Origin: Thermoanaerobaculia bacterium
GTDB lineage: Bacteria > Acidobacteriota > Thermoanaerobaculia > UBA5066 > Gp7-AA6
Length of the DNA: 64,000 nucleotides
Direction: 5' to 3'
Assembly: GCA_038203955.1 (NCBI GenBank)
Contig: JBBRDK010000002.1
Coordinates: forward strand, 17,424-81,423
Under the pieces are notes generated by a model. The model ran no database searches, was not told where the DNA came from, and worked only from the letters and a program-made list of their open reading frames with translations. How positions within the stretch are numbered: position 1 is the first letter of the stretch; each line of letters opens with the position of its first letter. Made by a program: the position numbers and the translations under genes. This document shows positions 34,975 to 58,207 of the stretch, piece by piece.

Positions 34975-35036
34975 GGAGCTCTCAGCTCTCAGCTCTCAGC
35001 TCTCAGCTCTCAGCTCTCAGCTCTCAGCTCTCAGTC
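34975..35036. repeat. tandem heptamer array (GAGCTCT / CTCAGCT) x ~8
   Basis: Perfect period-7 array between convergent genes; it supplies the TGA stop of the minus-strand gene 35024-35722. Confidence 0.95.
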
Positions 35037-36468: not shown

Positions 36469-36473
36469 GGAAA

Positions 36474-36507
36474 AGAAGTTATCAGTTGTCAGTTTTCAGT
36501 TTTCAGA
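36474..36507. repeat. heptamer array (TCAGTTN)x4
   Basis: tatcagttgtcagttttcagttttcag between the meaB stop and the mce start. Confidence 0.85.
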
Positions 36508-37479
36508 ACCACGCCTGCGAACGACTTCGCCGAAGAGGCGCGCCGAGGCGGCGTGAGGATCTTCCTGGCGGGCCGCGACGCGCGCCACCGCCTCTGCCAG
36601 GCTGCCGCCGGCGCGCGAGGGCGTCTCGACCTCCCGCCGAAACCGCTCGTCGAGAACGGCTAAGAGACGCGCCCGCGCGCGGCGCTGCGCCCGCCTCTCG
36701 CCTTCTCCTCCCGAGCGGAGGTGTTCGGCGTGGCGCTCGAACGCGTCGAGCGCTTCAGGAACTCCGGCGGCCGAGGGGGCGACCGTCCGGATGATCGGAG
36801 GGCGCCAGCCGGAAACGGGGGAGAGGTCGAGCATCATCGAGAGCTCCGTCTCGGTGCGGGAAGCCCCCTCGCGGTCGGCCTTGTTGACGACGAAGACGTC
36901 CGCGATCTCGAGAATCCCGGCCTTGATCGCCTGGATGTCGTCTCCGAGCCCCGGCACGAGGACGACGGCGACGGTCTCCGCCGCTTTCACGATGTCGACC
37001 TCGCCCTGCCCGACTCCGACGGTCTCGAGGATCACGACGTCGTAGCCGGCCGCATCCAGGACGTCGGCGGCGTCCCAGGTGGCTCGCGCGAGCCCTCCGA
37101 GCGCACCGCGCGTCGCCATCGACCGGATGAAAACTCCCGGGTCCGTGTAGATCTCCGCCATGCGGATGCGATCTCCGAGGATCGCGCCTCCCGTGTACGG
37201 CGACGAGGGATCGACGGCGATGATGCCGACCCGGCGGCCGCCGGCGCGGTAGGCCTGAGCCAGCCGCTGCACCAGGGTCGACTTTCCGGCTCCGGGCGGT
37301 CCCGTGATCCCGAGAGTGCGCGCGCGCCCCGTGTGCGGGAAGAGCGCGGCAAGAAGATCGGGGGCGCCTCCGTCGCGCTCGAGCGCGGAGATCGCGCGCC
37401 CGATCGCGCGGGGGTTTCCGGCGAGGACCCCTTCCCCGATCTCGGGAATTCCCGGACGCACACGCGAGCGGGCGGTCAA
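36496..37479 (-). CDS. meaB: methylmalonyl-CoA mutase-associated GTPase MeaB/ArgK
   Basis: GITGPPGAGKSTL P-loop, VGVGQ, NKAD motifs; 327 aa. Confidence 0.85.
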   Translation of the reverse strand: MTARSRVRPGIPEIGEGVLAGNPRAIGRAISALERDGGAPDLLAALFPHTGRARTLGITGPPGAGKSTLVQRLAQAYRAGGRRVGIIAVDPSSPYTGGAILGDRIRMAEIYTDPGVFIRSMATRGALGGLARATWDAADVLDAAGYDVVILETVGVGQGEVDIVKAAETVAVVLVPGLGDDIQAIKAGILEIADVFVVNKADREGASRTETELSMMLDLSPVSGWRPPIIRTVAPSAAGVPEALDAFERHAEHLRSGGEGERRAQRRARARLLAVLDERFRREVETPSRAGGSLAEAVARVAARQEDPHAASARLFGEVVRRRGSEN

Positions 37480-38813: not shown

Positions 38814-40334
38814 ATGTTTCCTGGGAAATCCCTGAGAATCGCGGTTTCGATCGCTGTCGCCCTCGCGTTCGGCGCGCTTCTGGCGCCGGCAGACGCGGCG
38901 GCGCAAACGGGCACGGTGCTCGCGACCGGCCTGAAGGCGCCGATGAAAATCTCGTTTACGCCCGCCGGCAACCTCCTCGTCTCCGAGGCGGGCACCGGGC
39001 CGAACACGGGCCGCCTCTCCCTCGTCAAGCGCGACGGAACCCGGACTACGATCCTGGACGGCCTGCCGTCCGGCCTTTCCGCCGTGGGAGGCAACGCGCC
39101 GTCGGGGCCCGCCGGCATCGAGCAGCTGGGAGACTCCTGGTTCCTGGCAATCGGCGCCGGCGACGAGAGCCTCCCCGGCGCGACGCCCGGCGTCGAGATC
39201 GCCAATCCGAACCCCGCCTCGCCGATCTTGAGCTCGGTCCTCAAGCTGCGTTTTAGCGCCTCGATCGACTCCACCTTCGGGAACTTCGTCATGACCCCGA
39301 CGCAGCACGCCGCGTTGAAGGGCGGAAGCGCGCTCGTCATCAACAACCCCGCGGGCGAAAACCTCCACGTCTCGCTGCTAGTCGACTTTCCGGACCTGAC
39401 CGGCCCGCGCTCCTCCAATCCGTTCGGAATCCTGGCGTTCGGAGGCCGCCTCTACGTCGTCGACGCGAGCCTGAACGCGATCCAGAACGTCGATCCCAAC
39501 ACGGGCGTCTACGTGACCGCCGCCACGTTCGCGCCGCTCTCGAATCCCTCGCCCCCGCCCCCCGTCGTGGACGCGGTGCCGGACAGCATCCGGACCACGA
39601 ACGGCCAGTTCCTGGTCTCCTTCCTCACGGGATTCCCCTTCGCGCCCGGCCGCGCGGAAGTCCGGCTCGTGGATCCGGCGACGGGAGCCAGCACGGCGCT
39701 TCTGACCGGTCTGAACTCGGCGATCGACGTCCTGCCCGTGGTGGGCGGCGCCAACGAGTATCTCGCGCTCGAGTTCAGCGTGAATCAGTCGGCCAATGCG
39801 CCCGGACGGCTCCTCCTGTTCAATCCCGCCTCGGCGCCTCCGACCGTCGTGGCGTCGGATCTCATCACGCCAACGAACATGGCGTTCGATCGCACGAGCC
39901 GCGAGCTCTTCGTGACGGAATTCGGGCCGGGGCGCATCCGCAGGCTCACCCTGGGCGGCGTGATTCCTGCGCTCCCGTGCGGCCTCGGGTCGACCACCCT
40001 GTGCCTCGGCGGCGGACGGTTCCAGGTCCAGGCGGCCTGGAGGAGCGGCCAGGCGTCCGGGGTGGGCATTCCGGTCGCCCTGACGGACACGACCGGGCAC
40101 TTCTGGTTCTTCAGCGCCGACAACGTGGAAGTGTTCGTGAAGGTCGTGCGAGGCTGCGCATTCAACTCCAAGTTCTGGGTCTTCGCGGGCGGGATGACGA
40201 ACGTGGAGGTCACCCTGACGGTCACCGACACGCAAACGGGCGTCGTCAGGACGTACGTGAATCCGCTCAACACGCCCTTCGCGCCGATCCAGGACACGAA
40301 CGCGTTCGGCGGGTGCCCGTTTAACTTCCCGTAG
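38814..40334 (+). CDS. secreted beta-propeller-like hypothetical protein with a Cys-containing ~110-aa C-terminal domain
   Basis: Signal peptide MFPGKSLRIAVSIAVALAFGALLAPADAAAQ; repetitive G/T/P-rich beta-strand segments; C-terminal CGLGSTTLCLGGGRFQVQAAW...GCAFNSKFWVF...GGCPF. Confidence 0.6.
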   Translation: MFPGKSLRIAVSIAVALAFGALLAPADAAAQTGTVLATGLKAPMKISFTPAGNLLVSEAGTGPNTGRLSLVKRDGTRTTILDGLPSGLSAVGGNAPSGPAGIEQLGDSWFLAIGAGDESLPGATPGVEIANPNPASPILSSVLKLRFSASIDSTFGNFVMTPTQHAALKGGSALVINNPAGENLHVSLLVDFPDLTGPRSSNPFGILAFGGRLYVVDASLNAIQNVDPNTGVYVTAATFAPLSNPSPPPPVVDAVPDSIRTTNGQFLVSFLTGFPFAPGRAEVRLVDPATGASTALLTGLNSAIDVLPVVGGANEYLALEFSVNQSANAPGRLLLFNPASAPPTVVASDLITPTNMAFDRTSRELFVTEFGPGRIRRLTLGGVIPALPCGLGSTTLCLGGGRFQVQAAWRSGQASGVGIPVALTDTTGHFWFFSADNVEVFVKVVRGCAFNSKFWVFAGGMTNVEVTLTVTDTQTGVVRTYVNPLNTPFAPIQDTNAFGGCPFNFP

Positions 40335-40360: not shown

Positions 40361-40401
40361 GACGATCGACGGATCGACGGATCGACGGATCGAGGGATCG
40401 T
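40361..40401. repeat. octamer tandem array (CGACGGAT)x4 with inverted ends (GACGATC...GATCGTC)
   Basis: gacgatCGACGGATCGACGGATCGACGGATCGAGGGATcgtc between convergent genes. Confidence 0.9.
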
Positions 40402-43940: not shown

Positions 43941-43993
43941 GACGTCGAGAGTTCAGAGTTCGGAGTCGAGAGTCGAGAGTTGAGAGTCGAAGT
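43941..43993. repeat. tandem heptamer array (GAGAGTY / AGTTCAG)
   Basis: cgaGAGTTCAGAGTTCGGAGTCGAGAGTCGAGAGTTGAGAGTCGAAGTC in the divergent spacer before argS. Confidence 0.85.
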
Positions 43994-44065
43994 CGGCCCG
44001 GGCGTCTCCGCCGACGCGCTCGGGCAGAACGGCAATTCTGCGCGGGAGACATATATTCTGCCGCC

Positions 44066-46093
<2,028 letters not shown>

Positions 46094-46097
46094 GATG

Positions 46098-46183
46098 GGT
46101 TATCAGATATCAGATATCAGATATCAGTTATCAGTTATCAGTCGGACGGACCGTAAACTCAAGACTGAAAACTGAGAACTGAA
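46098..46183. repeat. bipartite heptamer array: (TATCAGA/TTATCAG)x5, then (AACTGAN)x4
   Basis: ggttatcagatatcagatatcagttatcagttatcagtc...ctcaagactgaaaactgagaactgaagact; complementary halves; TGA on both strands. Confidence 0.9.
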
Positions 46184-46191
46184 GACTCCTC

Positions 46192-46551
46192 ATGAACAAA
46201 ATCAATCTCGCCCAGAAGCTCGCCCTCTTCCACGAGCCCTTCACGCCGAAGATCGTCGGGGACTTGAACGACAACCACGTCAAGCTGGTCAAGGTCCTCG
46301 GTGAATTCGTCTGGCATTCCCACGAGGCCGAGGACGAGATGTTCCTCGTGGTCAAGGGCCGCTTGACGATCAGCTTCCGGGACGGCGACGTGGAGCTCTC
46401 CGAGAACGAAATGCTCATCGTCCCGAAGGGCGTCGAGCACAGGCCCCTGGCGAGAGAGGAGGCGCACGTCCTGCTGATCGAGCCGAAGACGACCGTCAAC
46501 ACGGGGAATTCTCCCGGGGAGCGGACCGTGCCGGCGCCGGAGCGCATCTAG
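46192..46551 (+). CDS. cupin domain protein
   Basis: 119 aa; cupin motifs G(X)5HXH... (VWHSHEAEDEMFLVVKG) and PKGVEHRP. Confidence 0.7.
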   Translation: MNKINLAQKLALFHEPFTPKIVGDLNDNHVKLVKVLGEFVWHSHEAEDEMFLVVKGRLTISFRDGDVELSENEMLIVPKGVEHRPLAREEAHVLLIEPKTTVNTGNSPGERTVPAPERI

Positions 46552-46565
46552 AACGATTCGAACGG

Positions 46566-46608
46566 ATAACTGATAGCTGATAGCTGATAGCTGATAGCTG
46601 AAAACTGA
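46566..46608. repeat. tandem heptamer array (CTGATAG)x4 + CTGAAAACTGA
   Basis: Perfect period 7; TGA and TAG in every frame on the plus strand. Confidence 0.95.
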
Positions 46609-46610
46609 TC

Positions 46611-47471
46611 ATGGCTTCCCTCCGGGATCGCTGGGCGGACAACGCGGACGGGAAGTTCTACGTCGACCGGACGTGCATCGACTGCGACGCCTGCCGGCGG
46701 ATCGCGCCCACGGTGTTCGCCGAGGCTTCGGACCACTCGTTCGTCGCGCGCCAGCCCTCGGATGAGGCGGAGAAACGCCGCGCCCTGATGGCCTTAGTCG
46801 CCTGCCCGACGGGCTCGATCGGGACATCCCCCCGGGAGAACGCGCGGCCCGGCGTGGAAGCATTTCCCGAAACCGTCGAAGAAAACGTCTCGTTCTGCGG
46901 GTTTACGTCGAAGGACTCCTTCGGCGCGTGGAGCTATCTCATCGAGCGGCCGGGCGGCAACGTGCTGGTCGATTCGCCGCGAGCCGTCGCGCACCTGCTT
47001 CGGGAATTCGAGGCGCGGGGCGGGATCGCCACTCTCTTCCTGACCCACCGGGACGACGTCGCCGATCACGCCGCCTTCCGGCGCCGCTTTTCCTGCGAGC
47101 GCGTCCTGCACGAGGCCGATCGATCCCGGGAGACTTCGGATCTGGAACGGTACCTTTCGGGCGAGGACCGGGTGCCGCTCGCGGACGACCTTCTCGCCAT
47201 CCCGACGCCCGGCCACACACGGGGTCATACGGTGCTGCTCTACCGGGAGAAGTACCTCTTCACGGGCGATCACCTCGCCTGGTCCAGGCGCCGCAACGGG
47301 CTGATCGCCTTCCGGGACGCGTGCTGGTACTCGTGGAAGGAGCAGACGCGGTCCATGGAGCGCCTTCTCGACTACTCGTTCGAGTGGGTGCTGCCCGGAC
47401 ACGGCCAGTGGCATCGCGCGGAATCGGCGGAGCGATGCGCAAGGAGCTCGAGCGGTGCGTCGCGTGGATGA
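46611..47471 (+). CDS. ferredoxin-like [4Fe-4S] domain fused to MBL-fold metallo-hydrolase
   Basis: N-terminal CIDCDAC...CP cluster motif; MBL motifs THRDD/H..D.H...GHTRGH; the C-terminal ~15 aa may be frameshifted (see findings). Confidence 0.7.
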   Translation: MASLRDRWADNADGKFYVDRTCIDCDACRRIAPTVFAEASDHSFVARQPSDEAEKRRALMALVACPTGSIGTSPRENARPGVEAFPETVEENVSFCGFTSKDSFGAWSYLIERPGGNVLVDSPRAVAHLLREFEARGGIATLFLTHRDDVADHAAFRRRFSCERVLHEADRSRETSDLERYLSGEDRVPLADDLLAIPTPGHTRGHTVLLYREKYLFTGDHLAWSRRRNGLIAFRDACWYSWKEQTRSMERLLDYSFEWVLPGHGQWHRAESAERCARSSSGASRG

Positions 47472-47483
47472 AGGGAGTTTGAA

Positions 47484-47516
47484 GCTCTCAGCTGTCAGCT
47501 GTCAGCTGTCAGCTCT
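47484..47516. repeat. tandem heptamer array (CTCAGCT/GTCAGCT)x4-5
   Basis: agctctcagctgtcagctgtcagctgtcagctctc; provides the TGA stop of the GHMP kinase on the minus strand. Confidence 0.95.
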
Positions 47517-48510
47517 CCAATTCCACCTCCAGGCCGCGGGAGACGACGGCGGCCGCGACCACGCGGCCGACACCTAGATCCGAGAGCTCCAAGCGGACTC
47601 CCGGCGTCGCCTCCGCGGGCGAGAGGATCACGACGAACCCGCCTCCCCCGGCGCCGCACGCCTTCCCGCCCCACGCCCCCACCGCGATCGCGGCGGCGAT
47701 GGCGCGCTCGATCACAGGCGTCGAAACGACCGGAGCGAGCCGCCGGCGGGCCTCCCATTCACTCGCGAGAGCCGTTCCCATGGCCTCGAAATCCCGGCGC
47801 GCCGCCGCGCGCGCCATCTCGGCCGCCGCGCGCCGCACGCCCTCGATCTCCCGGGTCACGGCGGCGTCTCCCTCGAGCCGCGCGCGCAACACCTCCCAGT
47901 TGTTCATCCCGGAAGAGTGCGCCGCCCCGGTGTCGTACAGCGTCAGGTGCCGCTCCCAGGCCTCGGGCTCCACGTCTTCCCTGGCCGCGCGGGTCGCGCC
48001 GGGCAGGAACTCGATCGTATGGAGGCCGCCGGCGAGCGCCGGATAGTAGTCCTGAACACCGGCGGGCTTCCCGAGCACCCGCGTCTCGACGTCGCGCACG
48101 AAGTCGACGCGGTCGACGCCCGCCATGTCCCTCGGCGCGAACCGTTCGAGGGCTCCCATCAACGCGACGGTCAGCGCCGACGATCCTCCCAGTCCCGAAC
48201 CGATCGGAACGGACGTTTGAAGCTCGATCTCGAGAGACTCCCGGATCAGCAGAGCATCGAGAATAGATCCCACGAGAGCCGCGCGCGGGTCGGCCAGCAG
48301 ACCATCGGATTCGGCCGAGCGGCAATCAAACGAGCCGTCCGACGCGAAAACCCGGAAGACCCCCTCGGAGGGCCGGACCCGGCAGGAGGCAAAGAGATCG
48401 ATGGCGACGTTGATCGTGAAGGTACCGGGATGCAGAACATGAAGCGGCCAGAGGTCGAGCGTCCCGCCAGCCAGATCGACGCGCGCGGGTGCCGAAGACA
48501 GAATCTTCAT
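47509..48510 (-). CDS. GHMP family sugar kinase (HddA/fucokinase-like)
   Basis: APARVDLAGGTLD N-terminus, GHMP ATP motif PIGSGLGGSSA; 333 aa. Confidence 0.7.
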   Translation of the reverse strand: MKILSSAPARVDLAGGTLDLWPLHVLHPGTFTINVAIDLFASCRVRPSEGVFRVFASDGSFDCRSAESDGLLADPRAALVGSILDALLIRESLEIELQTSVPIGSGLGGSSALTVALMGALERFAPRDMAGVDRVDFVRDVETRVLGKPAGVQDYYPALAGGLHTIEFLPGATRAAREDVEPEAWERHLTLYDTGAAHSSGMNNWEVLRARLEGDAAVTREIEGVRRAAAEMARAAARRDFEAMGTALASEWEARRRLAPVVSTPVIERAIAAAIAVGAWGGKACGAGGGGFVVILSPAEATPGVRLELSDLGVGRVVAAAVVSRGLEVELES

Positions 48511-48609
48511 GGACGCGAGAAACTATCAGCTCGGGGGATGTTCAGCGCTCAGACTTTGCGACAGCGGGAAGAGCGTGCATCACGCCGTGAGCATCTCTCT
48601 CTTCTTCGA

Positions 48610-48860
48610 GACTTGTCAGGCTGGACGTTCCGCCCCTCACCCCAACCCTCTCCCCCGGCGCGCGGGGACGCCGTAAGCAAGTCCTGACACTCGGCATCGC
48701 CTTCCACTTGAGTGCCGCCCCTCACCCCGCCCTCTCCCCGGCGCGCGGGGAGAGGGAGCGGGGGAGCTCAGCGTGGCTTCTTCGCCCGCACTGGCTAATA
48801 CGCTCGCCCCGAGAGGAGTCTCCTGACCGAAGGGAAGGAGGAGCCTCTCGGGGTGGGAGC
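48610..48860. repeat. REP-like GC-rich palindromic elements (two copies of CCGCCCCTCACCCCNNCCCTCTCCCCGGCGCGCGGGGA.. plus a CCCCGAGAGG...CCTCTCGGGG hairpin)
   Basis: Copy 2 is a perfect 10-bp stem CCCTCTCCCC/GGGGAGAGGG around GGCGCGC; copy 1 has a degenerate right arm; a second 10-bp stem lies 3'. Confidence 0.8.
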
Positions 48861-48963
48861 CGCCGCGAACGGAGGGGCAGGCGAGCGGTCGAGCCGTCAG
48901 GCGAGCCGCTTGCCGCTGCGGTCGCCGCGGCGACCGCAGCCCCGCAGTGAGCGAAGGCGACGG

Positions 48964-49617
48964 TTAGTAACCGACCCGGCTCGCGCGGAGGAATCCCGAT
49001 TGCGGGAAGCCGACCCCTTCGACGGTCAACGTCTGGCCTGCCGACTTCGACGTCATCGCGGGGTCGCGGGACATCAGCCTCCACACCTCGCCGTTTTCGG
49101 CGCAGAACGCGGCTTCATGGTGCGCCTGCGGGAGGGGGCAGAGGCCGGCTTCCACCCGGGACTCGCAGTCGAGGCACACGAGAGTTCCCGTCATCCGGCG
49201 GGAGACGAGCGTCGGCCCGTTCAGGGTCGGACCGCGGGAACCCGAAAGGGAGGCCAGGGTCGCGATCCCGGAGGACGCGCTCGAGAGGCTCGCGTCCTCG
49301 GTCTGGAGCCGCCGGCTGGAGACGTCGGCGACTAACGGGACCAGGAGGAACAGGACGACGGCGGCCGTGGCCAGGAGGGGATACTCGAAGCGCGCCGGCC
49401 GAACGTCTCCCTGATGAAGGCGCTGCCTCAGGCGGGTGGGGGCCGGCGAACGATCGCGGTGGGTCCGGAGGACCTGGGCGAGCCCCCGGGCCGAACGCGC
49501 GCGCGCCTCGCAGGGGTCGCATTCGGCAAGGTGTCGCGAGAGCGCCTCGGCCTCGACACTGCAGATGTCCCGCTCGAGGTGAGCGTAGAGGAGGAAGCGA
49601 GCCTGGGCGCAGTTCAT
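48964..49617 (-). CDS. anti-sigma factor (zf-HC2-like Cys/His motif + TM + C-terminal Cys-rich domain)
   Basis: HLAECDPCEARARS... zinc-finger; one TM; C-terminal CxxC...C...C; downstream of the ECF sigma gene. Confidence 0.65.
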   Translation of the reverse strand: MNCAQARFLLYAHLERDICSVEAEALSRHLAECDPCEARARSARGLAQVLRTHRDRSPAPTRLRQRLHQGDVRPARFEYPLLATAAVVLFLLVPLVADVSSRRLQTEDASLSSASSGIATLASLSGSRGPTLNGPTLVSRRMTGTLVCLDCESRVEAGLCPLPQAHHEAAFCAENGEVWRLMSRDPAMTSKSAGQTLTVEGVGFPQSGFLRASRVGY

Positions 49618-49726
49618 GGTGCCGGGGACAGCAACGAGCCGTCCGGCGCCTAAATTCCAGCCGGGGCGCGCCTGACGCGAGTTCGGAAGGCTCGGCGGGT
49701 CGAGCGCGCGCCCCGCCGCTAACGGA

Positions 49727-50368
49727 CTACGCGGCCGGGCTCTTCGGCCGGGTCCGCATCTTGGTCGGCTCGGCGCCCCGGATGTACCCGTGCTGGCGGG
49801 CGTACTTCAAGAGCGCTTTCTCGAGCAGCTTGCGTCCCCGGTACAGGCGCGACATCACGGTGCCTACGGGGCAGTCCAGAATGTCCGCGATCTCCTTGTA
49901 CGAGAAGTCCTCGAGGTCCGCCAGCAGAACCACCATCCGGTAGTCGTACGGCAGCGACTCGAGGGCCTTCTTGACGTCCTCATCCATCACACCCGTGAAG
50001 TACTCGGACTCGGGATCGGCGGCCTGGTCGGTGTTGTCGCGGCGCACGATGCGCTCGAAGGAGTCCTCGATCTCGGCGAAATCCACGCTGCGAGGCTCGA
50101 GCTTCTTCTTGCGGTAGTTGTTGATGAAGGTGTTCTTCAGGATCTTGAAGAGCCACGCCTTCAAGTTCGTGCCCTCTTCGAACTTGTCGTAGTACTTGTA
50201 CGCCTTGAAGTAGGTCTCCTGAACGAGATCCTCGGCGTCCTCCGCGCTCCGGGTCATCCGGTATGCGGTGTTGTAGAGCGAGTCCAGATACGGCATCACG
50301 AGGGAATCGAAGTCCCACGACGAGACGCCGGACTGTTCCGTTTTCGGCTGCACGTTCACCTTTTCCAT
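49727..50368 (-). CDS. ECF sigma factor (RpoE/SigE-like)
   Basis: Region 2 ([20 protein letters not shown]...) and region 4 ([40 protein letters not shown]); ATG at MEKVNVQ with RBS GGGGAGA. Confidence 0.85.
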
Positions 50369-50636
50369 GTCTCCCCGTATTTCAATAATCCTGCCCGCCC
50401 CGTGGGTTCCGGCCGCCCGAAGGAGGCTCGTCCAATAAGCTTCTTGTCTTCTACGGATTACGCCCCGCGAGTGTTGAGGGGGCGACAAGAAGAAATACGC
50501 GTAGAGGCCGGGAATGGTTTCCGATTGGGGTCACTTTGTCCCCGAACGGGGACGGCCGGCCCCCTCAGAGGACGGCCTCTGCCGGGCGATCGGGGGAATA
50601 GGGCTCCGGTGGAGGACGCCAGAGCCCCGGAAGGAC

Positions 50637-50957
50637 CTACTTGTTCTGGATCAGGAAGCAGATGAGCAGGGCGTAGAGCACCAGCGATTCGATCAGCACG
50701 AGGCCGAGGAGCGTCATTCCGCGGATGTCCTTGGCCGCGCCGGGATTCCGGGACATTCCTTCCGAAGCCGCCGCGGTCGCCCTCCCTTGGGCGGTGGCAC
50801 CGGCCGCCGCCGCGATCGCCAGCAGGAAAGCCGCTCCGATGACTCCCCACCGCACTCCCGTGGGGGCCGCCGCGGCCGTCGTCGCGGCCTCCTGCGCGAA
50901 CGCCGGAAGCGCCGAAACGAGCGACACCGCGCACAACAGAACCGTCTTCTTCACCAT
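50637..50957 (-). CDS. atpE: F0F1 ATP synthase subunit c with N-terminal signal-peptide-like extension
   Basis: Helix 1 Gly/Ala motif, loop RNPGAAKDIR, helix 2 LIESLVLYALLICF with the conserved Glu; first ~22 aa MVKKTVLLCAVSLVSALPAFA resemble a cleavable signal. Confidence 0.75.
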   Translation of the reverse strand: MVKKTVLLCAVSLVSALPAFAQEAATTAAAAPTGVRWGVIGAAFLLAIAAAAGATAQGRATAAASEGMSRNPGAAKDIRGMTLLGLVLIESLVLYALLICFLIQNK

Positions 50958-51011
50958 CCGCAGATCTCCTTCTTTGACGCGCCGCCGGCGCGGTGATGCC
51001 GGAAACTATCA

Positions 51012-51046
51012 TGAGCTGTCAGCTCTCAGCTGTCAGCTTTCAGTGA
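51012..51046. repeat. heptamer array (GAGCTGT/CAGCTCT) between atpB and atpE
   Basis: gagctgtcagctctcagctgtcagctttcagtgac; intra-operon. Confidence 0.9.
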
Positions 51047-51062
51047 CTCGATTGATTGTCCG

Positions 51063-51818
51063 TCAGTGCTCCTCGTGCGCGGTGGCGCCGGCGACGTAGA
51101 CCGCGGAGAGCAGCGCGAAAACGTATGCCTGCAGGGCCGCGGTGAACAGGCCGAGGGCCATCATGGGCCAGGGGACCCCGATCGGGACCAGGCTCGCGAA
51201 CACTCCCGTCGTCGTGTGCTCTCCGTAGATGTTCATGAAGAGCCGCAGCGAGAGCGACAGGATCCGGGCGAAGGTTCCGATGATCTCGATGACGAAAAAC
51301 AGCGGCGCGATGAGCAGCAGCGGCCCCGTGAAGTGCTTCAGATACGCCAGCAGGCCGTGCTCCTGGATGCCCTTCCAGTTGAAATAGACGAAGGAGATGA
51401 CGGCCAGGGCCACCGTCGTCGACAGAGAACCCGTCGGCGGCTGGAGGAAAAAGAAGAGCCCGAACAGGTTGGCCACGCCGATGAAGATCGCGAACGTCCC
51501 GATGATCGGCACGTACTTCTCGCCCCCGTGCCCGATCACGTCCTGGCACATGCTCCGAAGACCGGAGACCAGCATCTCGAAGAAGCTCTGGAGCTTGGAC
51601 GGCTTCTCGCGGTCGTACCGGCGCGCCACGAGGGGAAAGAAAATCGCGAAGATCAGAAGAAGCAGGAGGGTCATGATCGCCGCGTCCGGGATCCAGGCCT
51701 CCTTCCCGTCGGGAAAGAAGAACGCGGCCTGGCCGGGGGAAAGCCTCTCGACCGGCGGCTCGCCGAGGAGCCTCTTCAGCAGCCCGTTGAGCGGGCCGTA
51801 CAGGATCGAATGATGCTC
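51063..51818 (-). CDS. atpB: F0F1 ATP synthase subunit a
   Basis: LSLSLRLFMNIYGEH with the conserved Arg; 5-6 TM helices; probable TTG start after GAGGAG. Confidence 0.8.
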   Translation of the reverse strand, partial: EHHSILYGPLNGLLKRLLGEPPVERLSPGQAAFFFPDGKEAWIPDAAIMTLLLLLIFAIFFPLVARRYDREKPSKLQSFFEMLVSGLRSMCQDVIGHGGEKYVPIIGTFAIFIGVANLFGLFFFLQPPTGSLSTTVALAVISFVYFNWKGIQEHGLLAYLKHFTGPLLLIAPLFFVIEIIGTFARILSLSLRLFMNIYGEHTTTGVFASLVPIGVPWPMMALGLFTAALQAYVFALLSAVYVAGATAHEEH

Positions 51819-51834
51819 TTCCAAACGTTTCTCC

Positions 51835-52155
51835 TCACTCCTGACCCGGCCGGCCGATCCAGAGCTCCGGGACGATGGCCAGCACCACGATCGAAAGGCC
51901 GGCCGCGCCGGCAACCGGGTCGAAATCCTTCCAGCGAAACAGAACGACGGCGAAGAGTAACAAACTGGCGGCCGTCACCAGGAGAAGAGGCGCAATGGTC
52001 CTGAATCCGGGCCGATTCTGCTGGGGTATGAGACGCAGGGTCAGTCTCTCGAGCGCGAGAAAGCTGAAAATAACGACGGCTGCCGCGATTGTCAAGGACA
52101 CGCCGGCGCGCCACCCGAAGGCAAAAGCGCCCGCGATCGCGAGCGCGCCGAGCAC
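51835..52155 (-). CDS. ATP synthase protein I-like small membrane protein
   Basis: 106 aa, 3-4 TM; sits between atpZ and atpB as AtpI does in many operons. Confidence 0.5.
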   Translation of the reverse strand: MLGALAIAGAFAFGWRAGVSLTIAAAVVIFSFLALERLTLRLIPQQNRPGFRTIAPLLLVTAASLLLFAVVLFRWKDFDPVAGAAGLSIVVLAIVPELWIGRPGQE

Positions 52156-52200
52156 GAAGGCGCGCCGCCGGACGCGGGAAATGAGGGGGTCGGTGGAGGA

Positions 52201-52234
52201 GTTGTCAGTCTTCAGTTTTCAGTTTTCAGTTCAG
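52201..52234. repeat. heptamer array (TCAGTTT)x4
   Basis: gttgtcagtcttcagttttcagttttcagttcag. Confidence 0.9.
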
Positions 52235-52253
52235 CCTCGGAACGACGTTCTCG

Positions 52254-52478
52254 TCAGCGATTCAGCCTTCCGGCGAGGCGGAAAAAGTTTACGAACGCGG
52301 CCGCAAGACCGAGCCCTCCGCCTACCCAGGAGGCGGCGCCCCCCCACCCGAACCGTCGAGCAATCCAGGCGCCCAGAAAGTAGCCGGCGAGGGGCCCCGC
52401 GAGGAAAAGAAGGCCCGCAGAGGTTCCCTCCGCGACGGCAGAGGCGCGGGAACGCCCAGGGGGCTCGGCATCACTCAT
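52254..52478 (-). CDS. AtpZ/AtpI-family small membrane protein (putative F0F1 ATPase-associated)
   Basis: 74 aa, two TM with Gly-rich helices; position immediately upstream of atpI/atpB. Confidence 0.5.
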   Translation of the reverse strand: MSDAEPPGRSRASAVAEGTSAGLLFLAGPLAGYFLGAWIARRFGWGGAASWVGGGLGLAAAFVNFFRLAGRLNR

Positions 52479-52493
52479 ATCGAGATCGATTCC

Positions 52494-52527
52494 GAACTGA
52501 GAACTGATAACTGAGAACTGAAAACTC
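52494..52527. repeat. heptamer array (GAACTGA / TAACTGA)x4-5
   Basis: ccgaactgagaactgataactgagaactgaaaactc; TGA every 7 nt on the plus strand. Confidence 0.95.
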
Positions 52528-52529
52528 TC

Positions 52530-53981
52530 TCAGTACTTGCTCGGCACGCACCGGTGCAGAACGTCCAGCACGCTCTCGGGGGCGACGCCGATCACGAGCG
52601 TTCCGACCGCGCAGATGATGACGGCGGCGGTCAGCGCGTAGGAGACGGGAATCTTCGCGCTGACGCCGTCGGTGAAGAACATCGCCGCCGCGATCCGGAA
52701 GTAGTAGAAGAGGGAGACCGCGGAGGCGAGCACGGCAATGACGGCGAGCCAGGCGTAGCCCGCGTCCATCGCCGCGGTGAACAGGTAGTACTTGCCGATG
52801 AAGCCGGCGGTCGGAGGGATTCCCGCGAGCGAGAGCAGGAAGAGAAGCATGACGACCGCCGCCGGCATGTTGCGCTTCGCGAGACCGTTGAAGTCGGACA
52901 CCGACTCGGCCGCGTAACCCTTCGCCTCGAGGAAGATGATGAGCCCGAAGGCGCCGAAGTTCATGAGCGTGTATGCCAGCAGGTAGACCAGCACGCCCCA
53001 CATCCCGAACTTCGTCTGGAACCCGAGGACGCCCAGGAGCGCGTATCCCGCGTGGGCGATCGACGAGTACGCAAACATCCGCTTGACGTTCGTCTGTAGC
53101 AGCGCGGCGAGGTTTCCCCAGATCATGGTCGCTGCCGCGACGAGGGCCACGATCAATCCCCAGTCGGCCTGGAACTTCGGGAACGCGACGTAGAAGATGC
53201 GCGCGAAGATCGCGTAAGCGGCGACCTTGGGCCCGACGGAGAAGAACGCGGTCACCGGCGTCGGCGAGCCCTCGTAGACGTCCGGAGTCCAGAGATGGAA
53301 CGGGACGGCCGCGATCTTGAAGAGCAGCCCCGCCAGAATCATGAGGATCCCGAGGACGATGGCGTTCGTCCGCTGCATGCCCGTGTAGAGCTGCGCGAGG
53401 TCGGCGAGGCCCATCTTCCCGCCGAGACCGTAGACGAGAGAGAGGCCGTAGAGGAGAACGGCCGACGAGAACGCGCCGAGGATGAAGTACTTGAGCGCCG
53501 CCTCCGTCGACTTGATCTCTCCCTTGAAGTATCCGGCCAGCACGTACGAAGCCAGCGCCATGAGCTCGAGGGCGACGTAGATGGAAATGAGATTGCTCCC
53601 GGACGCCATGAAGAACATCCCGACGCCGGAGAACAGGACCAGCGCGTAGTACTCGCCTCCCGGGTAGGGCGCTTCGCCGACGAACCGCACGGACGCGAGG
53701 ACGGTCAGCACCATCGCCAGCAGCACGAGAAACTTGAAGAAGAGGGCGAAGTTGTCGACCACGAACATGCCGCCGAGAATCGGGCCGTGGGCCCGCTCGG
53801 GCATCGTGGAGACGAAGACGAGCAGCACCCCGGTCACCCCGAGCATCAGCACCGAGAGGAACCCGAAGAGCTCTTCCTTCGCCTTCCCGACGAAGACGCT
53901 CGACGCCAGCAGGATCATCCCCGCGGCGGTCAAGAACAGCTCCGGCGAGAGCAGGAGCCAGTCGGTGGCCTGAACCTTCAC
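52530..53981 (-). CDS. nuoN: NADH-quinone oxidoreductase subunit N
   Basis: 483 aa, 14 TM, NuoN family; GTG start overlaps the nuoM stop (GTGA). Confidence 0.85.
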   Translation of the reverse strand: MKVQATDWLLLSPELFLTAAGMILLASSVFVGKAKEELFGFLSVLMLGVTGVLLVFVSTMPERAHGPILGGMFVVDNFALFFKFLVLLAMVLTVLASVRFVGEAPYPGGEYYALVLFSGVGMFFMASGSNLISIYVALELMALASYVLAGYFKGEIKSTEAALKYFILGAFSSAVLLYGLSLVYGLGGKMGLADLAQLYTGMQRTNAIVLGILMILAGLLFKIAAVPFHLWTPDVYEGSPTPVTAFFSVGPKVAAYAIFARIFYVAFPKFQADWGLIVALVAAATMIWGNLAALLQTNVKRMFAYSSIAHAGYALLGVLGFQTKFGMWGVLVYLLAYTLMNFGAFGLIIFLEAKGYAAESVSDFNGLAKRNMPAAVVMLLFLLSLAGIPPTAGFIGKYYLFTAAMDAGYAWLAVIAVLASAVSLFYYFRIAAAMFFTDGVSAKIPVSYALTAAVIICAVGTLVIGVAPESVLDVLHRCVPSKY

Positions 53982-55606
53982 CGGACCGCCGCTGCCGGGG
54001 CGGCGGGCGCCAGTTCCCCCGACGCCGCCGGGATCCCCGTTCCCGGCGCGCCCGCGTACGCCGGAGGAGTCATCGTCGCGCCTCCGACCGAGCGCACGAT
54101 GTTCTCGGAGGGAACCCGCAGGACGTCGAAGAACGGCTTCGGATAGAGGCCAATCCAGAGAGCGAGAACGACAAGCGGCGCCAGCGTCAGCTGCTCCCGA
54201 AAGGAGAGGTCGGGAAGCTTCGCGTTGGCCGGATTGGAGAGCTCTCCGAAGAAGACGCGCTGGTAGAGCCAGAGGAGGTACGCGGCTCCGAGCACGATGC
54301 CGGTGCAGGCGAAGAGAGCCCACCAGAAATTCTTCGCGAACGCTCCCTGCAGGATCGAGAACTCCCCGATGAATCCGTTCAAGAGAGGAAGGCCCATCGA
54401 CGAGAGCGCCATGATCAGGAAGTACGTGGCGTAGATCGGCATCTGCCGGGCGAGGCCGCCGTACTCGGCGATCATGCGCGTGTGCCGGCGCTCGTAGACC
54501 ACGCCGACTAAGAGGAAGAGGGCGCCCGTCGAGATGCCGTGGTTGATCATCTGCAGGACGCCGCCCTGCACGCCCGCCATGTTGAGCGCGAAGATCCCGA
54601 GCATCACGAACCCGAGATGCGACACCGAGGAGTACGCGATCAGCTTCTTCATGTCCTTCTGGACGAGAGTGACCATGGCGCCGTACACGATGCCGACGAT
54701 CGCGAGGAACACCATCGTCCCTATCACCCACGGCGTCTTCACGGCCTCCGGGAACATCGGCAGGGAGAACCGGACGAAGCCGTACGTGCCCATCTTCAGC
54801 AGGACCGCGGCGAGGATCACGGACCCCGCGGTCGGCGCCTCGGTGTGGGCGTCCGGCAGCCAGGTGTGGAACGGGAACATGGGCACCTTGATCGCGAACC
54901 CGAAGAAGAACGCGAAGAAGAGCCACACCTGGAGCTCCGGCGGCATCGCCGCGGCCACCGCGGTCAGCTTCGGAACGGAGAACGTCGCGGCGTGTCCGAG
55001 GCCCTTGTACCCGAGGAAGCCCGTGGTGTTGTAGAAATAGAGAGCGATGATGCCGAGCAGCATCAGCACCGACCCCGCCAGCGTGTACAGGAAGAACTTG
55101 ATCGCCGCGTAGAGCCGTCGCTGTCCTCCCCACACGCCGATCAGGAAGTACATCGGCACCAGCATGATTTCCCAGAACACGTAGAACAGGAAGAAGTCGA
55201 GGCAGCAGAACGTGCCGATCATGAACGTCTGCAGGAGGAGCAGGAGGATGTAGTACTCCTTCTGCCGCTCCGCGATCGCCGAGTAGGACGAATAGATCGC
55301 GATCACCCCGATCAACGTGGTCAGGAGGATCAGAAGCAGGGTGATTCCGTCGATCCCGAAGTGATAGTCGACTCCGAGAGACGGGATCCACGAAATGCGC
55401 TCGACGAACTGATACCCGGCCTTCGCGCGGTCGAAGGAGAACCAGAGCGGGAGCGAGACCGCAAAGTCGAGAGCGGCGACGGCCGTCGCGAACGCCTTGA
55501 TCGCTCCCGTTTTTTCCTTCGGGATCAGGAACATGATGATCAGCGCGCCGGCGAGCGGAATGTACGCGATCATCGAGAGAAGCGGCAGCTGTTGCAGTGT
55601 GTTCAT
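53978..55606 (-). CDS. nuoM: NADH-quinone oxidoreductase subunit M
   Basis: 542 aa; antiporter-like subunit signature (HTWLPDAH, LIAYSSVSHLG). Confidence 0.9.
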   Translation of the reverse strand: MNTLQQLPLLSMIAYIPLAGALIIMFLIPKEKTGAIKAFATAVAALDFAVSLPLWFSFDRAKAGYQFVERISWIPSLGVDYHFGIDGITLLLILLTTLIGVIAIYSSYSAIAERQKEYYILLLLLQTFMIGTFCCLDFFLFYVFWEIMLVPMYFLIGVWGGQRRLYAAIKFFLYTLAGSVLMLLGIIALYFYNTTGFLGYKGLGHAATFSVPKLTAVAAAMPPELQVWLFFAFFFGFAIKVPMFPFHTWLPDAHTEAPTAGSVILAAVLLKMGTYGFVRFSLPMFPEAVKTPWVIGTMVFLAIVGIVYGAMVTLVQKDMKKLIAYSSVSHLGFVMLGIFALNMAGVQGGVLQMINHGISTGALFLLVGVVYERRHTRMIAEYGGLARQMPIYATYFLIMALSSMGLPLLNGFIGEFSILQGAFAKNFWWALFACTGIVLGAAYLLWLYQRVFFGELSNPANAKLPDLSFREQLTLAPLVVLALWIGLYPKPFFDVLRVPSENIVRSVGGATMTPPAYAGAPGTGIPAASGELAPAAPAAAVR

Positions 55607-55608
55607 GC

Positions 55609-55648
55609 GTTCAGTTCTCAGTCATCCGTTTTCAGTTCTCAGTTTCCG
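55609..55648. repeat. heptamer array (TTCAGTT / TCTCAGT)
   Basis: gttcagttctcagtcatccgttttcagttctcagtttcc between nuoL and nuoM. Confidence 0.85.
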
Positions 55649-55654
55649 TTCGCG

Positions 55655-57877
55655 TCACCGGAAGAGCAGGTACACGGCGACGAGGCAGAAGAGCCCGCCG
55701 CCCATCACGAGGGCGTAGTTCTGAACGCGGCCGGTCTGCGCGCGCCGGAAGCCGCGGAAACCGGCCTGGAGCGTGTTCGCGACGCCGTTGACGAGGCCGT
55801 CCACCACGTACTGGTCGAAGAAGGAAGACAGCCACGAAAGCCCGACGGTCACGTGGCGCGCGCCGTTGACCGCTCCATCGATGACGGTGGCGTCGAAGTC
55901 CCAGAGGAAACGGCCGCCGCCCTTGGCGAGTCCCTGGACGAAGACCGAGTCGTAGGCCTCGTCCACGTAGTACTTGTTGGACACGGCCCGATACACTCCG
56001 GGGAACCGGGCGGCGATGCGTGCCGGTACCGCTCCCTCTCCCTTCGCGTACCAGACGTAAGCGATGGCGAGGCCGATCGCCGCCGCCGCCACGGAGGCCG
56101 CCATCAGGAGGGCTTCGGTCGACGCCGCCGCTTCGTGCGCCGCCGTATGCGCGCCCGCGCCGGCGAGAGGCAGCAGGATCGAATGGAGAAACGCCCCGAT
56201 CCGGTCCCCGCCGCGCACCATCGGAATCCCGACGTAGCCACCCACGACCGACAGGAACGCGAGGACGATCAGGGGGACGGTCATCGAGCGGGGAGATTCA
56301 TGGATCTGCGCCTCCTGCTCGGTTCCGCCGCGGAATTTTCCCCAGAAGGTCAGGGAGACGACCCGCAGCATGTAGAACGCGGTCAGGCCCGCCGTGAAGA
56401 GCGCCGCCGCCCAGAGCACTCGGCCGAGCCACGGGGCGCTCTCGAAGTGCGCCTCGAAAGCCGCGGCGAGGATCGCGTCCTTGGAGAAGAACCCGGCCAG
56501 AAGCGGCACTCCCGCGATCGCCAGCGTCGCGACGAGGAAAGTCCGGTACGTCACGGGTATCTTCGACGCGAGCCCGCCCATCTTGCGGATATCCTGCTCT
56601 CCCCCGAGCGCGTGGATGACGGATCCGGATCCTAAGAAGAGGCAGGCCTTGAAGAACGCGTGCGTCATCACGTGGAACATGCCGGCGACGAAGGCGCCGA
56701 CCCCGCAGGCGAGAAACATGTATCCCAGCTGCGACACGGTCGAGTAGGCGAGCACCTTCTTGATGTCGTTCTGAGCGATGCCGATCGTCGCGGCGAACAG
56801 CGCGGTGAATCCGCCAATCGCCGCGACGACCAGAAGGGCGTCGGGCGAGAGGCGGAAGAGGACGTTGCAGCGCGCGACCATGTACACGCCCGCCGTCACC
56901 ATCGTCGCCGCGTGGATCAGCGCCGAGACAGGCGTCGGGCCCGCCATGGCGTCCGGCAGCCAGACATAGAGCGGAAACTGGGCGGACTTGCCGCACGCGC
57001 CGACGAAGAGGCAGAGGCAGACCAGGGTCAGGTAGGGAGCGTACGCGGCCGGATGCGCGGCCGCCGCCGGGAAGACCTTGCCGAAGTCGAGCGAGCCGAA
57101 GAGGCTGAAGATTCCGAAGATCCCGAGGATGAAGCCGAAGTCTCCGATCCGGTTGACGACGAAGGCCTTCTTGCCCGCATCCGCGGCGGCGTCCCGATCG
57201 TAGAAGTAGCCGATCAGGAGGTACGAGCAGAGGCCGACTCCTTCCCAGCCCACGAAGAGCATCAGGAAGTTCGCGCCCAGCACGAGCAGCAGCATCGAGA
57301 ACATGAAGAGGTTGAGATAGGCGAAGTAGCGCCCGTAGCCCTCCTCGTGCCCCATGTACCCGACGGAGTAGACGTGGATCAGGAAGCCGACGAACGTGAC
57401 GAACGCGATCATCAGCGCCGACAGCGAATCGAGGCGGAACGCGGCGTCTACGAACCACTCACCGGCCGGGCCGTGCACCTGTCCGACGGCCTGGTTCACG
57501 CCGAGCGGCAGCCAGCGGTAGAGAGTCACGACGTGGGCCGCACCCTCCGAGAGGCGGGCGATGCCGACGTCGAAGATCGCGAGAAAAGCGAAGACGCAGG
57601 CGAGACCGACCGAAACGGTTCCGACGACCGTGTGGACCGTCTTGAACGGAATCGGCGAGTGCCCGGCCGGGTCGTGCGCGGGCGACGCGGCGTGCGTGTG
57701 AGCGGGATTCTCGCCGTGCACGGAAGGAGCGGGGGCCCCGGCAGGAGCCGGCGCGCCGTGCGACCCGTGAGCGTCGGCCGCCTCCCCCCGGGTGCGATGG
57801 GAGACCAGGTACAGAACCCCGTTGACGAGGAATCCCGCCAGCGGAAAGAGGGGCACGAGCCAGAGCAGGTCCTTCAA
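55655..57877 (-). CDS. nuoL: NADH-quinone oxidoreductase subunit L (with ~50-aa His/Pro/Ala-rich insertion after TM1)
   Basis: 740 aa; NuoL N-terminus MKDLLWLVPLFPLAGFLVNG; insertion HRTRGEAADAHGSHGAPAPAGAPAPSVHGENPAHTHAASPAHDPAGHSP; long C-terminal amphipathic helix region. Confidence 0.85.
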   Translation of the reverse strand: MKDLLWLVPLFPLAGFLVNGVLYLVSHRTRGEAADAHGSHGAPAPAGAPAPSVHGENPAHTHAASPAHDPAGHSPIPFKTVHTVVGTVSVGLACVFAFLAIFDVGIARLSEGAAHVVTLYRWLPLGVNQAVGQVHGPAGEWFVDAAFRLDSLSALMIAFVTFVGFLIHVYSVGYMGHEEGYGRYFAYLNLFMFSMLLLVLGANFLMLFVGWEGVGLCSYLLIGYFYDRDAAADAGKKAFVVNRIGDFGFILGIFGIFSLFGSLDFGKVFPAAAAHPAAYAPYLTLVCLCLFVGACGKSAQFPLYVWLPDAMAGPTPVSALIHAATMVTAGVYMVARCNVLFRLSPDALLVVAAIGGFTALFAATIGIAQNDIKKVLAYSTVSQLGYMFLACGVGAFVAGMFHVMTHAFFKACLFLGSGSVIHALGGEQDIRKMGGLASKIPVTYRTFLVATLAIAGVPLLAGFFSKDAILAAAFEAHFESAPWLGRVLWAAALFTAGLTAFYMLRVVSLTFWGKFRGGTEQEAQIHESPRSMTVPLIVLAFLSVVGGYVGIPMVRGGDRIGAFLHSILLPLAGAGAHTAAHEAAASTEALLMAASVAAAAIGLAIAYVWYAKGEGAVPARIAARFPGVYRAVSNKYYVDEAYDSVFVQGLAKGGGRFLWDFDATVIDGAVNGARHVTVGLSWLSSFFDQYVVDGLVNGVANTLQAGFRGFRRAQTGRVQNYALVMGGGLFCLVAVYLLFR

Positions 57878-57881
57878 GACG

Positions 57882-58187: not shown

Positions 58188-58207
58188 GGGCGCCTCTCGC
58201 GGAGAGG

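Follow-up and report, generated by a model that had tools for sequence, protein, structure and literature searches.

Heptanucleotide repeat arrays and their inverted pairing in the intergenic spacers of a Thermoanaerobaculia genome

What fills the spacers of a compact bacterial genome with tandem arrays that keep a period of seven nucleotides while the repeated unit changes from spacer to spacer? The question is raised by a 64 kb stretch of a Thermoanaerobaculia bacterium (assembly GCA_038203955.1, contig JBBRDK010000002.1; hereafter the window, to which all coordinates refer), which has a GC content of 63-75% and is approximately 91% coding according to a codon-usage gene map. It is posed most clearly around a small cupin gene on the plus strand (46192-46551, identified by a Pfam match), both spacers of which are occupied by arrays. 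A few nucleotides past the argS stop codon (46091-46093) is (TATCAGA)5.9 at 46101-46141 (+), as seen with Tandem Repeats Finder (TRF) and in the sequence; it is followed at 46155-46187 (+) by (AAACTGA)4.7, an A-rich CTGA-type arm that has no Shine-Dalgarno (SD) motif and lies 4 nt 5' of the cupin ATG. On the other side of the gene (GATAGCT)6.4, equivalent to CTGATAG, fills the spacer between the cupin gene and a ferredoxin-metallo-beta-lactamase (MBL) gene at 46565-46609 (+), stopping 1 nt short of the ATG at 46611. We file these arrays under the known phenomenon of heptanucleotide simple-sequence repeats, here in a new phylum, and not as a new class of repeat.

Period-7 arrays and their inverted pairing

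A lag scan for at least three copies with at least 13/14 matches recovered 17 period-7 arrays in 5.6 kb of intergenic DNA and none in 58 kb of coding DNA. Within the window, to which this comparison is confined, the intergenic counts were zero at periods 5, 6 and 9-13 and two at period 8. Dinucleotide-preserving shuffles of the spacers (n=200) gave a mean of 0.09 period-7 arrays and a maximum of 2, against 16 observed, and the pattern CTGANNNCTGANNNCTGA, which requires CTGA every 7 nt three times, has 31 matches in the window where none is expected; an artefact of chance or composition is thus ruled out by the shuffle controls. Arrays cover 498 of 5297 intergenic bp and 32 of 58703 coding bp. 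Assembly artefacts are also ruled out, since metagenome assemblies made independently have homologous modules at the orthologous gene junctions.

A preliminary description of the window had reported arrays in nearly every spacer, and in at least 25 of them. The arrays are indeed well beyond chance, but their extent is smaller, with 15 of the 44 spacers of at least 20 nt containing them under the strict criterion and 21 under a relaxed one, in which approximately 31 arrays are spread over the 21 spacers. Its other statements on the arrays mostly stand: TRF and inspection of the sequence place period-7 arrays at 22 of the 23 heptamer positions that it gave, and its claims of a nearly constant period with a variable unit and of array-free coding regions agree with the lag scan.

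TRF copy numbers are mainly 3.4-6.4, and a typical arm has 4-5 units. At least five unrelated unit families are present within this one 64-kb window (TCAGNNN, GAGAGTT, GGGCGCY, CGGGAAA, and AACGGAC), and the CTGA-type units themselves take the forms NAACTGA, NAGCTGA and TATCTGA, exact TAACTGA being one variant among several. A fixed period combined with a varying unit sequence points to a process set by the period and not by the sequence.

The main structural fact about the arrays, which the preliminary description overlooked, is that many of them, about half, form inverted pairs that fold into hairpins. The layout of a module is (X)n-loop-(rcX)n, where rcX is the reverse complement of the unit X, giving an 80-130-nt hairpin with arms of 4-5 units; the arms are about 30 bp and are interrupted by about one mismatch per heptad, such that minimum free energy (MFE) structures consist of 5-6-bp blocks parted by single mismatches. 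Inverted pairs within a spacer occur at 423/482, 3203/3255, 18224/18278, 19867/19908, 46101/46155, 58206/58288, 60603/60711, and 61987/62038, and two other pairs bracket a short gene, 46101 with 46565 around the cupin open reading frame (ORF) and 52494 with 52200 around an ORF resembling atpZ. The array at 46101-46141 is a 5' arm twice over: locally it forms a hairpin with 46155-46187 (z −3.1), and at long range a stem with 46565-46609. In the MFE structure as in the centroid, 46098-46141 is paired to 46565-46609, with periodic mismatches and with the cupin gene enclosed (z −4.4).

Compared with shuffled sequences, paired spacers fold with z scores of −3 to −6. Single arms are nearly structure-free, with z scores above zero and MFE values of approximately −1 to −13 kcal/mol, the 44-nt arm at 36469-36512 having about −1. 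For 19 modules at junctions of the nuo/atp operon, from the window and related contigs, the median z is −4.7, and 11 of them (58%) have one enclosing stem, against 35% in shuffles. Of the 105 arrays in the window and all fetched loci taken together, 61 lie no more than 160 nt from a reverse-complement partner, and the 5' arm of a pair contains more G than C in 35 cases and more C than G in five.

Because array edges sit 1-9 nt past a stop codon or 1-17 nt before a start codon, the arrays amount to the entire spacer, and modules span the distance from an upstream stop to the next start, including at junctions inside the nuo operon. The flanking genes are housekeeping genes. SD-like motifs are scarce 5' of predicted starts across the whole window, and the taxa with TAACTGA arrays (cyanobacteria, Bacteroidetes, and Beggiatoaceae) are similarly SD-poor. 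The arrays themselves are ruled out as a source of SD sequences, as they contain no SD motif and such motifs are rare in general. When read by eye, all eight of the CTGA-type arrays nearest to a start present NNNCTGA on the mRNA strand; five of the eight are 1-17 nt from the predicted start and the others are 26, 44, and 89 nt upstream, although a start at the GTG at 19975 would shorten the last distance to 36 nt.

Orthologous junctions in related lineages

We found no contig of the same species, an exact-protein lookup being empty and the top metagenome match to NuoD having 91% identity. The closest ArgRS homologues are in metagenome-assembled genomes of Thermoanaerobaculia and Acidobacteriota, with amino-acid identities of 87% for the best and about 74% for those that follow. 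Ten relatives that are syntenic in the argS region (L001-L010) share 70-81% nucleotide identity across tens of kb, and these contain almost no period-7 arrays even with a relaxed threshold; their orthologous spacers are tiny or overlapping, and some contain a different palindromic repeat. At the cupin/MBL junction the closest relative (L001) has an overlapping TGATG, where the window has 59 nt that are nearly all array. The palindromic repeat of the array-poor relatives, GGTCATCCCGAGGCGCG...CGCCGAGGGATCCC, lies in spacers orthologous to heptamer spacers of the window (L003:12040-12320, L005:11960-12040, L007:11970-12050, and L081:8250-8460), and the same gaps appear to be filled by different repeat classes in different lineages.

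Period-7 arrays that are mostly paired and have quite different units are present at other Acidobacteriota loci (L011, L017, L018, L021, L028, L030, L050, L058, L065, and L067), and soil contigs with a relationship to the window (L083, L084, L088, L090, and L091) have period-7 arrays too. The CTGA core is seen again in L018 and L091.

At the nuoD/nuoH junction ten relatives have a 4-nt overlap of stop and start codons (GTGA or ATGA), and in the window, L084, L088, L090 and L091 a module instead follows directly after the TGA; in the window it occupies 60603-60741 on the minus strand and reads (ACGGRAA)n ... (CCCGATT)n on the mRNA strand. Its order is a G-rich array, a loop, a complementary array, a CCCGGG-like tail and then the ATG. 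Module sizes at this junction are 100-160 nt (103 nt in L090), apart from a 46-nt single arm in L083, and in four lineages the modules are 100-103 nt and fold at −52 to −59 kcal/mol. The units differ by lineage (ACGGGAA, GACGGGA, CGGGACT, GGCGTAA, and GGCGTCA), and the second arm is complementary in each. An alignment-based search for covariation gave double changes at six predicted pairs, a weak count that comes from four sequences and in which register shifts, and the recurrence of one change in each unit, are confounding factors.

Lineage-specific modules are also found at nuoC/D, J/K, K/L, L/M, nuoN/atpZ, and before the nuo promoter. L084 has six different units inside one operon; at some junctions the window and L091 have a unit family in common, for instance AACTGAG at nuoL/M and TCAGTTN after nuoN. 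Spacer lengths at nuo junctions are bimodal, with 88 of 20 nt or less, two of 46-75 nt, and 18 of 76-135 nt. The contigs with inserts form two neighboring clades in a neighbor-joining tree of NuoD, as would be expected if modules were gained once or twice and then passed on vertically. The modules are inherited, and their units change in concert, both within an arm and between arms.

Two loci contain (CGATGAA)n arrays (L028:54-123 and L024:1009-1031). This unit includes the ATGA stop/start overlap, and some arrays may therefore start when 7 nt at a junction of overlapping genes are duplicated.

Origin and maintenance of the arrays

The explanation that we favor, at somewhat better than even chances, is that the arrays are heptanucleotide repeats of the type known as short tandemly repeated repetitive sequences (STRR) or long simple-sequence repeats (LSSR), a lineage-specific non-coding class born by slippage, extended by inverted duplication and tolerated thereafter. 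In such a scheme slipped-strand replication would create and homogenize the arrays, and intrastrand template switching (quasipalindrome correction) would add the inverted arm and correct one arm to the other. The products would persist through tolerance, because a period not divisible by three cannot extend a reading frame. The hairpin may hold in close proximity the stop and start codons that formerly overlapped, and an unpaired A-rich CTGA arm could provide a structure-free leader for SD-less starts in a genome whose GC content is given as 68%. Slippage was among the mechanisms proposed in the preliminary description, and we retain it for the origin of the arrays.

The same description did not recognize the arrays as a described repeat family, but heptanucleotide arrays have been reported previously in other phyla (PMC4679880, PMC4692102, PMC2700814). 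Two later papers (PMC4679880, PMC4692102) cite Mrazek et al. (2007) for the finding that in most prokaryotic genomes no LSSR class is more abundant than that with heptanucleotide units, and for the proposal of polymerase slippage; according to one of the two (PMC4679880), 7 nt is possibly the length that contacts the polymerase. In these accounts LSSRs, like the window arrays, have 7-nt units dominant over other lengths, exceed chance, are non-coding and phylogenetically scattered, and as far as the accounts go are without link to virulence or contingency genes. The LSSR properties given there are all seen in the window: head-to-tail units of 5-11 nt in arrays longer than chance (16 against 0.09), an excess of length 7 over neighboring lengths, and units of a length not a multiple of three mainly outside coding DNA (498/5297 versus 32/58703 bp). 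The window arrays differ from LSSRs as so described in being mostly hairpin arms placed exactly between stop and start and in their narrow arm length. The simple-sequence repeats of contingency loci lie in or 5' of surface or virulence genes and vary in copy number between close strains; the window arrays flank housekeeping genes, and the module length is 100-103 nt in four lineages. The three heptanucleotide STRR families of Calothrix PCC 7601 (PMC4692102) provide a further parallel. Cyanobacterial STRR resemble the window arrays as tandem non-coding heptanucleotides with several unit families per genome, and differ in phylum and in units. Only L084 contains a CAACAGT-like unit (ACAGTCR), which we take to be that of STRR3. 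A literature search combining Acidobacteria, heptamer, tandem repeats and intergenic found no report, and the window adds a new phylum to the heptamer repeats.

Several observations weigh against an origin in slippage followed by tolerance. Arm length is narrow at 4-5 units, where slippage alone predicts a broad, roughly geometric spread of copy number and strain-level variation, and narrow arms together with the equal nuoD/nuoH length in four lineages have the look of constraint. From the bimodality of spacer length, modules seem to arrive near full size and not by gradual growth. The G-first bias of the arms (35 versus 5) is not predicted by a neutral DNA process and is the one feature that hints at directional constraint, at the level of RNA or single-stranded DNA; conceivably, G-first order may avoid an unpaired C-rich 5' arm usable by Rho. 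The CTGA core recurs in distant phyla. Juxtaposition of stop and start is modestly supported: unpaired tails are the same as in shuffled sequences, which led us to reject that form of it, and only the fraction with an enclosing stem is higher.

A possible, though less probable, alternative is that the hairpin modules are selected intercistronic RNA elements similar to repetitive extragenic palindromic (REP) sequences, and that the single A-rich arms are translation leaders. Such elements could protect upstream segments from 3'-exonucleases, set the relative expression of cistrons, or couple translation in a structure-dependent manner. Modules inside the nuo operon take up the interval from stop to start, the arms remain complementary although the unit changes across lineages, and there is a strong bias toward a 5' G-rich and a 3' C-rich arm, all of which are in keeping with this. 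The CTGA arms are, moreover, always in the sense orientation just 5' of SD-less starts, as they are in Beggiatoaceae (PMC4679880), and the repeats of Xanthomonas are transcribed (PMC4692102). However, sense and antisense fold equally well: sense RNA was the more stable in seven of the 21 modules of known direction, with no strand bias (Wilcoxon p = 0.22), and RNA-level selection visible as a G-U asymmetry is thus rejected for these 21. Because there is no G-U signature on the transcript, a strand-symmetric DNA process could keep complementarity as easily as selection, and the earlier proposal of selected RNA structures is only half borne out, complementarity being conserved across lineages but a sense/antisense asymmetry absent. 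Close relatives also keep overlapping codons in the same operons and have no modules, and half of the arrays are single arms or lie in convergent or divergent spacers without hairpins. The arrays are not intrinsic terminators because they have no T-run, and a scan of 44001-64000 for terminator-like sequences gave 13 matches against 13.0 expected, none of them on an array.

The published heptamer repeats of other taxa share some but not all features with those of the window. TAACTGA arrays are located just 5' of SD-less starts in Beggiatoaceae, cyanobacteria, and Bacteroidetes (MacGregor 2015, PMC4679880), and have in common with the window the 2-6 copies of NAACTGA heptads that read in the sense direction shortly before SD-less starts, their association with housekeeping genes, and a patchy distribution among relatives (PMC4679880). 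The BOGUAY genome has 169 direct TAACTGA sets and only one indirect repeat (PMC4679880), whereas the window does not share this restriction to direct repeats; its CTGA arm usually has an upstream inverted TCAG arm (19867/19908, 46101/46155, and 52494/52200), its three variable positions differ (RAA, AGC, and ATA), and other unit families coexist with it. GGGAATC arrays of Xanthomonas have a preferred count of four, form 70-75 convergent inverted pairs per genome and are transcribed, and a given junction may differ in them from one species to another (Rehm et al. 2015, PMC4692102). These and the GGGGAYT repeats of Nostoc resemble the window arrays as G-rich heptamers of about four units with an intergenic bias, and in the wide variation of length and sequence among related species at the same junctions (PMC4692102). 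A literal (GGGAATC)2.7 is present at 60603-60621, and this and (CGGGAAA)4.3 at 61987 fit a G3N4 pattern that most other arrays do not; only two unit families of the window are G3-tract repeats that could form G-quadruplexes. With both literal (GGGAATC)n and NAACTGA arrays, the window unites motifs reported separately in other phyla.

Rather unlikely, in our view, is a dedicated trans-acting system, horizontally or sporadically distributed, that creates the arrays and their inverted partners, sizes them at 4-5 units per arm, and homogenizes them. The candidate could be an unrecognized nuclease or polymerase, or a protein binding in a 7-nt register. If it exists, such a system would explain the CTGA-core and GGGAAxC heptads of Acidobacteriota, Geobacter, Xanthomonas, Beggiatoaceae, cyanobacteria, and Bacteroidetes, and the hairpin modules would be its products, comparable to REPINs (REP doublets forming hairpins) and the REP-associated tyrosine transposase (RAYT), and not the passive debris of slippage.

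We consider it still more doubtful that the arrays are multimeric sites bound by some protein with a 7-nt reading register, for which IHF or HU on DNA (the guess made for Geobacter) and S1, a cold-shock-domain protein or a ring-shaped regulator on RNA (that made for Beggiatoaceae) are the candidates proposed. Copy number is narrow at 4-5, and four is preferred in Xanthomonas (PMC4692102) and four or five in Geobacter (PMC2700814); the CTGA core also recurs, in the window (31 heptad matches), L018, L091, Geobacter (as MTYCTGA), and the TAACTGA arrays of three other phyla (PMC4679880). A precedent is Geobacter metallireducens, with paired arrays of five MTYCTGA, four GGGACCG and octamer units named 'global regulator sites' (Aklujkar et al. 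2009, PMC2700814), which are absent from G. sulfurreducens and of which one pair lies between proB and proA (PMC2700814). The two share opposite-strand pairs at variable distance, 7- or 8-nt units, and intergenic positions, including within operons (PMC2700814). They differ in that each Geobacter class is multicopy by BLAST and was read as IHF/HU sites without a test (PMC2700814), whereas the window modules are individually distinct. With at least five unrelated unit families in one 64-kb window, an array of sites for one sequence-specific protein, as suggested in the preliminary description, is disfavored; orthologous modules also swap units between lineages, which a sequence-specific binder would not tolerate, and no candidate protein was identified.

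Least probable of these alternatives is that the 80-130-nt modules are mobile elements, resembling miniature transposable elements with inverted repeats (MITEs) or REPINs, inserted at gene junctions by a putative transposase, with the heptamer periodicity a property of the element arms. Spacer lengths fall into two groups and the modules are discrete, at about 100 nt; presence or absence at the same junction varies among related lineages, and ATGA flanks both sides of the nuoD/nuoH insert in L091 and L088, resembling a target duplication. REP and REPIN sequences are likewise extragenic hairpin modules of about 100 nt with two inverted arms, and they too are found between genes and inside operons (PMC3116915). 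Nevertheless, REPINs form near-identical families with a RAYT transposase (PMC3116915), whereas the window modules do not occur in many near-identical copies and have only the 7-nt period in common. Modules of one genome have no common termini, loops or units, the flanks of the window's four TCAGCTG arrays are unrelated, and the ATGA duplication is needed anyway to keep both genes intact. No transposase, including a RAYT (Y1) transposase, was seen among the approximately 30 of about 60 predicted proteins of the 64-kb window that were scanned against Pfam, and we set the MITE/REPIN model aside because the modules share no unit, loop or flank sequence. A known RNA family or a tRNA-derived repeat is ruled out by the empty results of Rfam 15 at the gathering threshold (0 matches in the window) and of ARAGORN (none in the window), and G-quadruplexes fail as a general account because only GGG-containing families qualify and most units (TCAGNNN, GAGAGTT) cannot form them.

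The nuo junctions provide a comparative system across many related soil lineages, in which overlapping codons can be set against hairpin modules with concerted unit turnover. Through them it is testable whether the insertions are tolerated or are functional intercistronic RNA, whether arms are corrected at the DNA level, and whether a gene tracks array-rich genomes. If the arrays are slippage products only, they are mainly a caveat for annotation, such spacers being neither promoters, terminators, nor small RNAs.

Other arrays and neighboring genes of the window

The Pfam matches of the window include ArgRS, the cupin, the ferredoxin-MBL protein, a GHMP kinase, CarB, UvrD, chorismate synthase, and an isopropylmalate/isocitrate dehydrogenase. 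A phosphoribosyltransferase-domain protein and an aspartate/ornithine carbamoyltransferase (N-terminal domain) are read as PyrR and PyrB; the spacer between their genes is filled by a hairpin of (GGCGTCA)3.6 at 423-454 and (CCAGCGC)4.3 at 482-511 (z −4.8 / −4.4). This spacer (417-518; hairpin z −4.8) is where PyrR-binding attenuators usually sit, and it has no PyrR match in Rfam.

Convergent spacers contain an inverted pair of AGTTGAG-like units and (ACTCTCA)2.6 at 3203-3272, (AGTTGAG)2.6 with degenerate units at 11782-11826, CGCTGAA/CGCTCAA units at 21159-21188, a perfect (100%) (AGCTCTC)8.3 at 34977-35034, and (AGCTGTC)4.6, equivalent to TCAGCTG, at 47483-47517, which is quasi-self-complementary through its CAGCTG core and forms a hairpin with a z of −3.8. 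The octamer array (GATCGACG)4.6 at 40364-40400, also in a convergent spacer, is a similar object of period 8 and was noted correctly in the preliminary description; it places a GATC site in each 8 nt. Two genes that adjoin arrays, 38814-40334 beside the 40364 octamer and 35024-35629 beside the 34977 heptamer, have no Pfam match and are missing from the otherwise syntenic L002-L010.

The arrays of divergent spacers are (AGCTGTC)5.4 followed by (GTTCTCA)3.4 at 11129-11191, with the CTGA orientation toward the minus-strand isocitrate/isopropylmalate dehydrogenase gene; (GAGTTGA)5.6 with near-complementary (AACGCTC)2.7 and (TCCCGCC)3 at 18224-18325 beside uvrD (z about −2); and (GAGAGTT)5.9 at 43947-43987, 5' of argS. 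An inverted pair of degenerate (TCAGTTA)n and (AACTGAA)4.4 lies 5' of the chorismate synthase gene at 19867-19938 (+; z −5.5 on the plus strand). TRF reports a degenerate (GGGCGCC)4.9 with 66% matches at 16094-16127. Single arrays are found 3' of carB, (AACGGAC)4.4 at 24193-24223, and in front of a glyoxalase-family gene on the minus strand, where 36477-36506 reads (AAACTGA)n on the mRNA strand, ends 5 nt short of the ATG and is structure-free (MFE about −1 kcal/mol).

The nuo operon occupies the end of the window (50458-64000) as 11 genes in the order nuoABCDHIJKLMN, complete with respect to that set and with nuoE, nuoF and nuoG not between D and H. It continues straight into atp genes, with Pfam matches to atpZ-like, atpI-like and atpB genes. 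At nuoC/nuoD an inverted pair of (CGGGAAA)4.3 and (CGTTTTA)3.7 is found at 61987-62063 (−; z −2.5 / −3.2), its stem base touching the GTG start of nuoD, and nuoJ/nuoK is filled by a hairpin of (GGCGCTG)8.6 and (CGCCTCA)3.6 at 58206-58312 (−; z −3.2 / −3.5). The nuoL/nuoM spacer is filled by (AACTGAG)n, read on the mRNA strand, at 55611-55644 (−); L091 has six perfect copies and an inverted arm there. Beginning 2 nt past the nuoN stop is (TCAGTTN)n at 52494-52526 (−), and its inverted partner (AACTGAA)n is at 52200-52231 (−), 3' of the atpZ-like ORF, both again read on the mRNA strand; L091 and L088 have a complete inverted pair at the site orthologous to 52494-52526. Downstream of atpB, (AGCTGAN)4.3 on the mRNA strand at 51014-51043 (−) abuts the ATG (51012) of the ORF 50458-51012.

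The ORF enclosed by the pair after nuoN (52254-52478, minus strand, 74 aa) is flanked on both sides by these inverted heptamer arrays and was overlooked by simple gene calling. It is common to L081, L084, L088, and L091, and its match to the AtpZ-like Pfam family ATPase_gene1 is borderline, at 26.0 bits with a cut-off of 26.6 bits. Just 5' of nuoA is a promoter-like TTGATT-N16-TAGAAT (63568-63595, minus strand), which is conserved in the same four relatives as TTGACTCCC...CCTCCGATA(G/A)AAT; in these relatives a heptamer hairpin is located directly 5' of the −35 box.

Two other spacers contain repeats of different kinds. The preliminary description had read 27516-27665 as heptamers within a 75-bp unit, but TRF gives a 72-nt tandem duplication at 27517-27656 (2.0 copies, 94% identity) that is not heptamer-based. 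It lies in a 292-nt spacer 5' of carB, and inside it are the palindrome GGATGG...CCATCC and a sub-repeat of 9 nt, GCGCGGATC. In the 453-nt spacer at 48511-48963, for which there is no Rfam match, a palindromic C-rich/G-rich motif (GCCCCTCACCCC..CCCTCTCCCCGGCGCGCGGGGA) with a REP-like look occurs twice.

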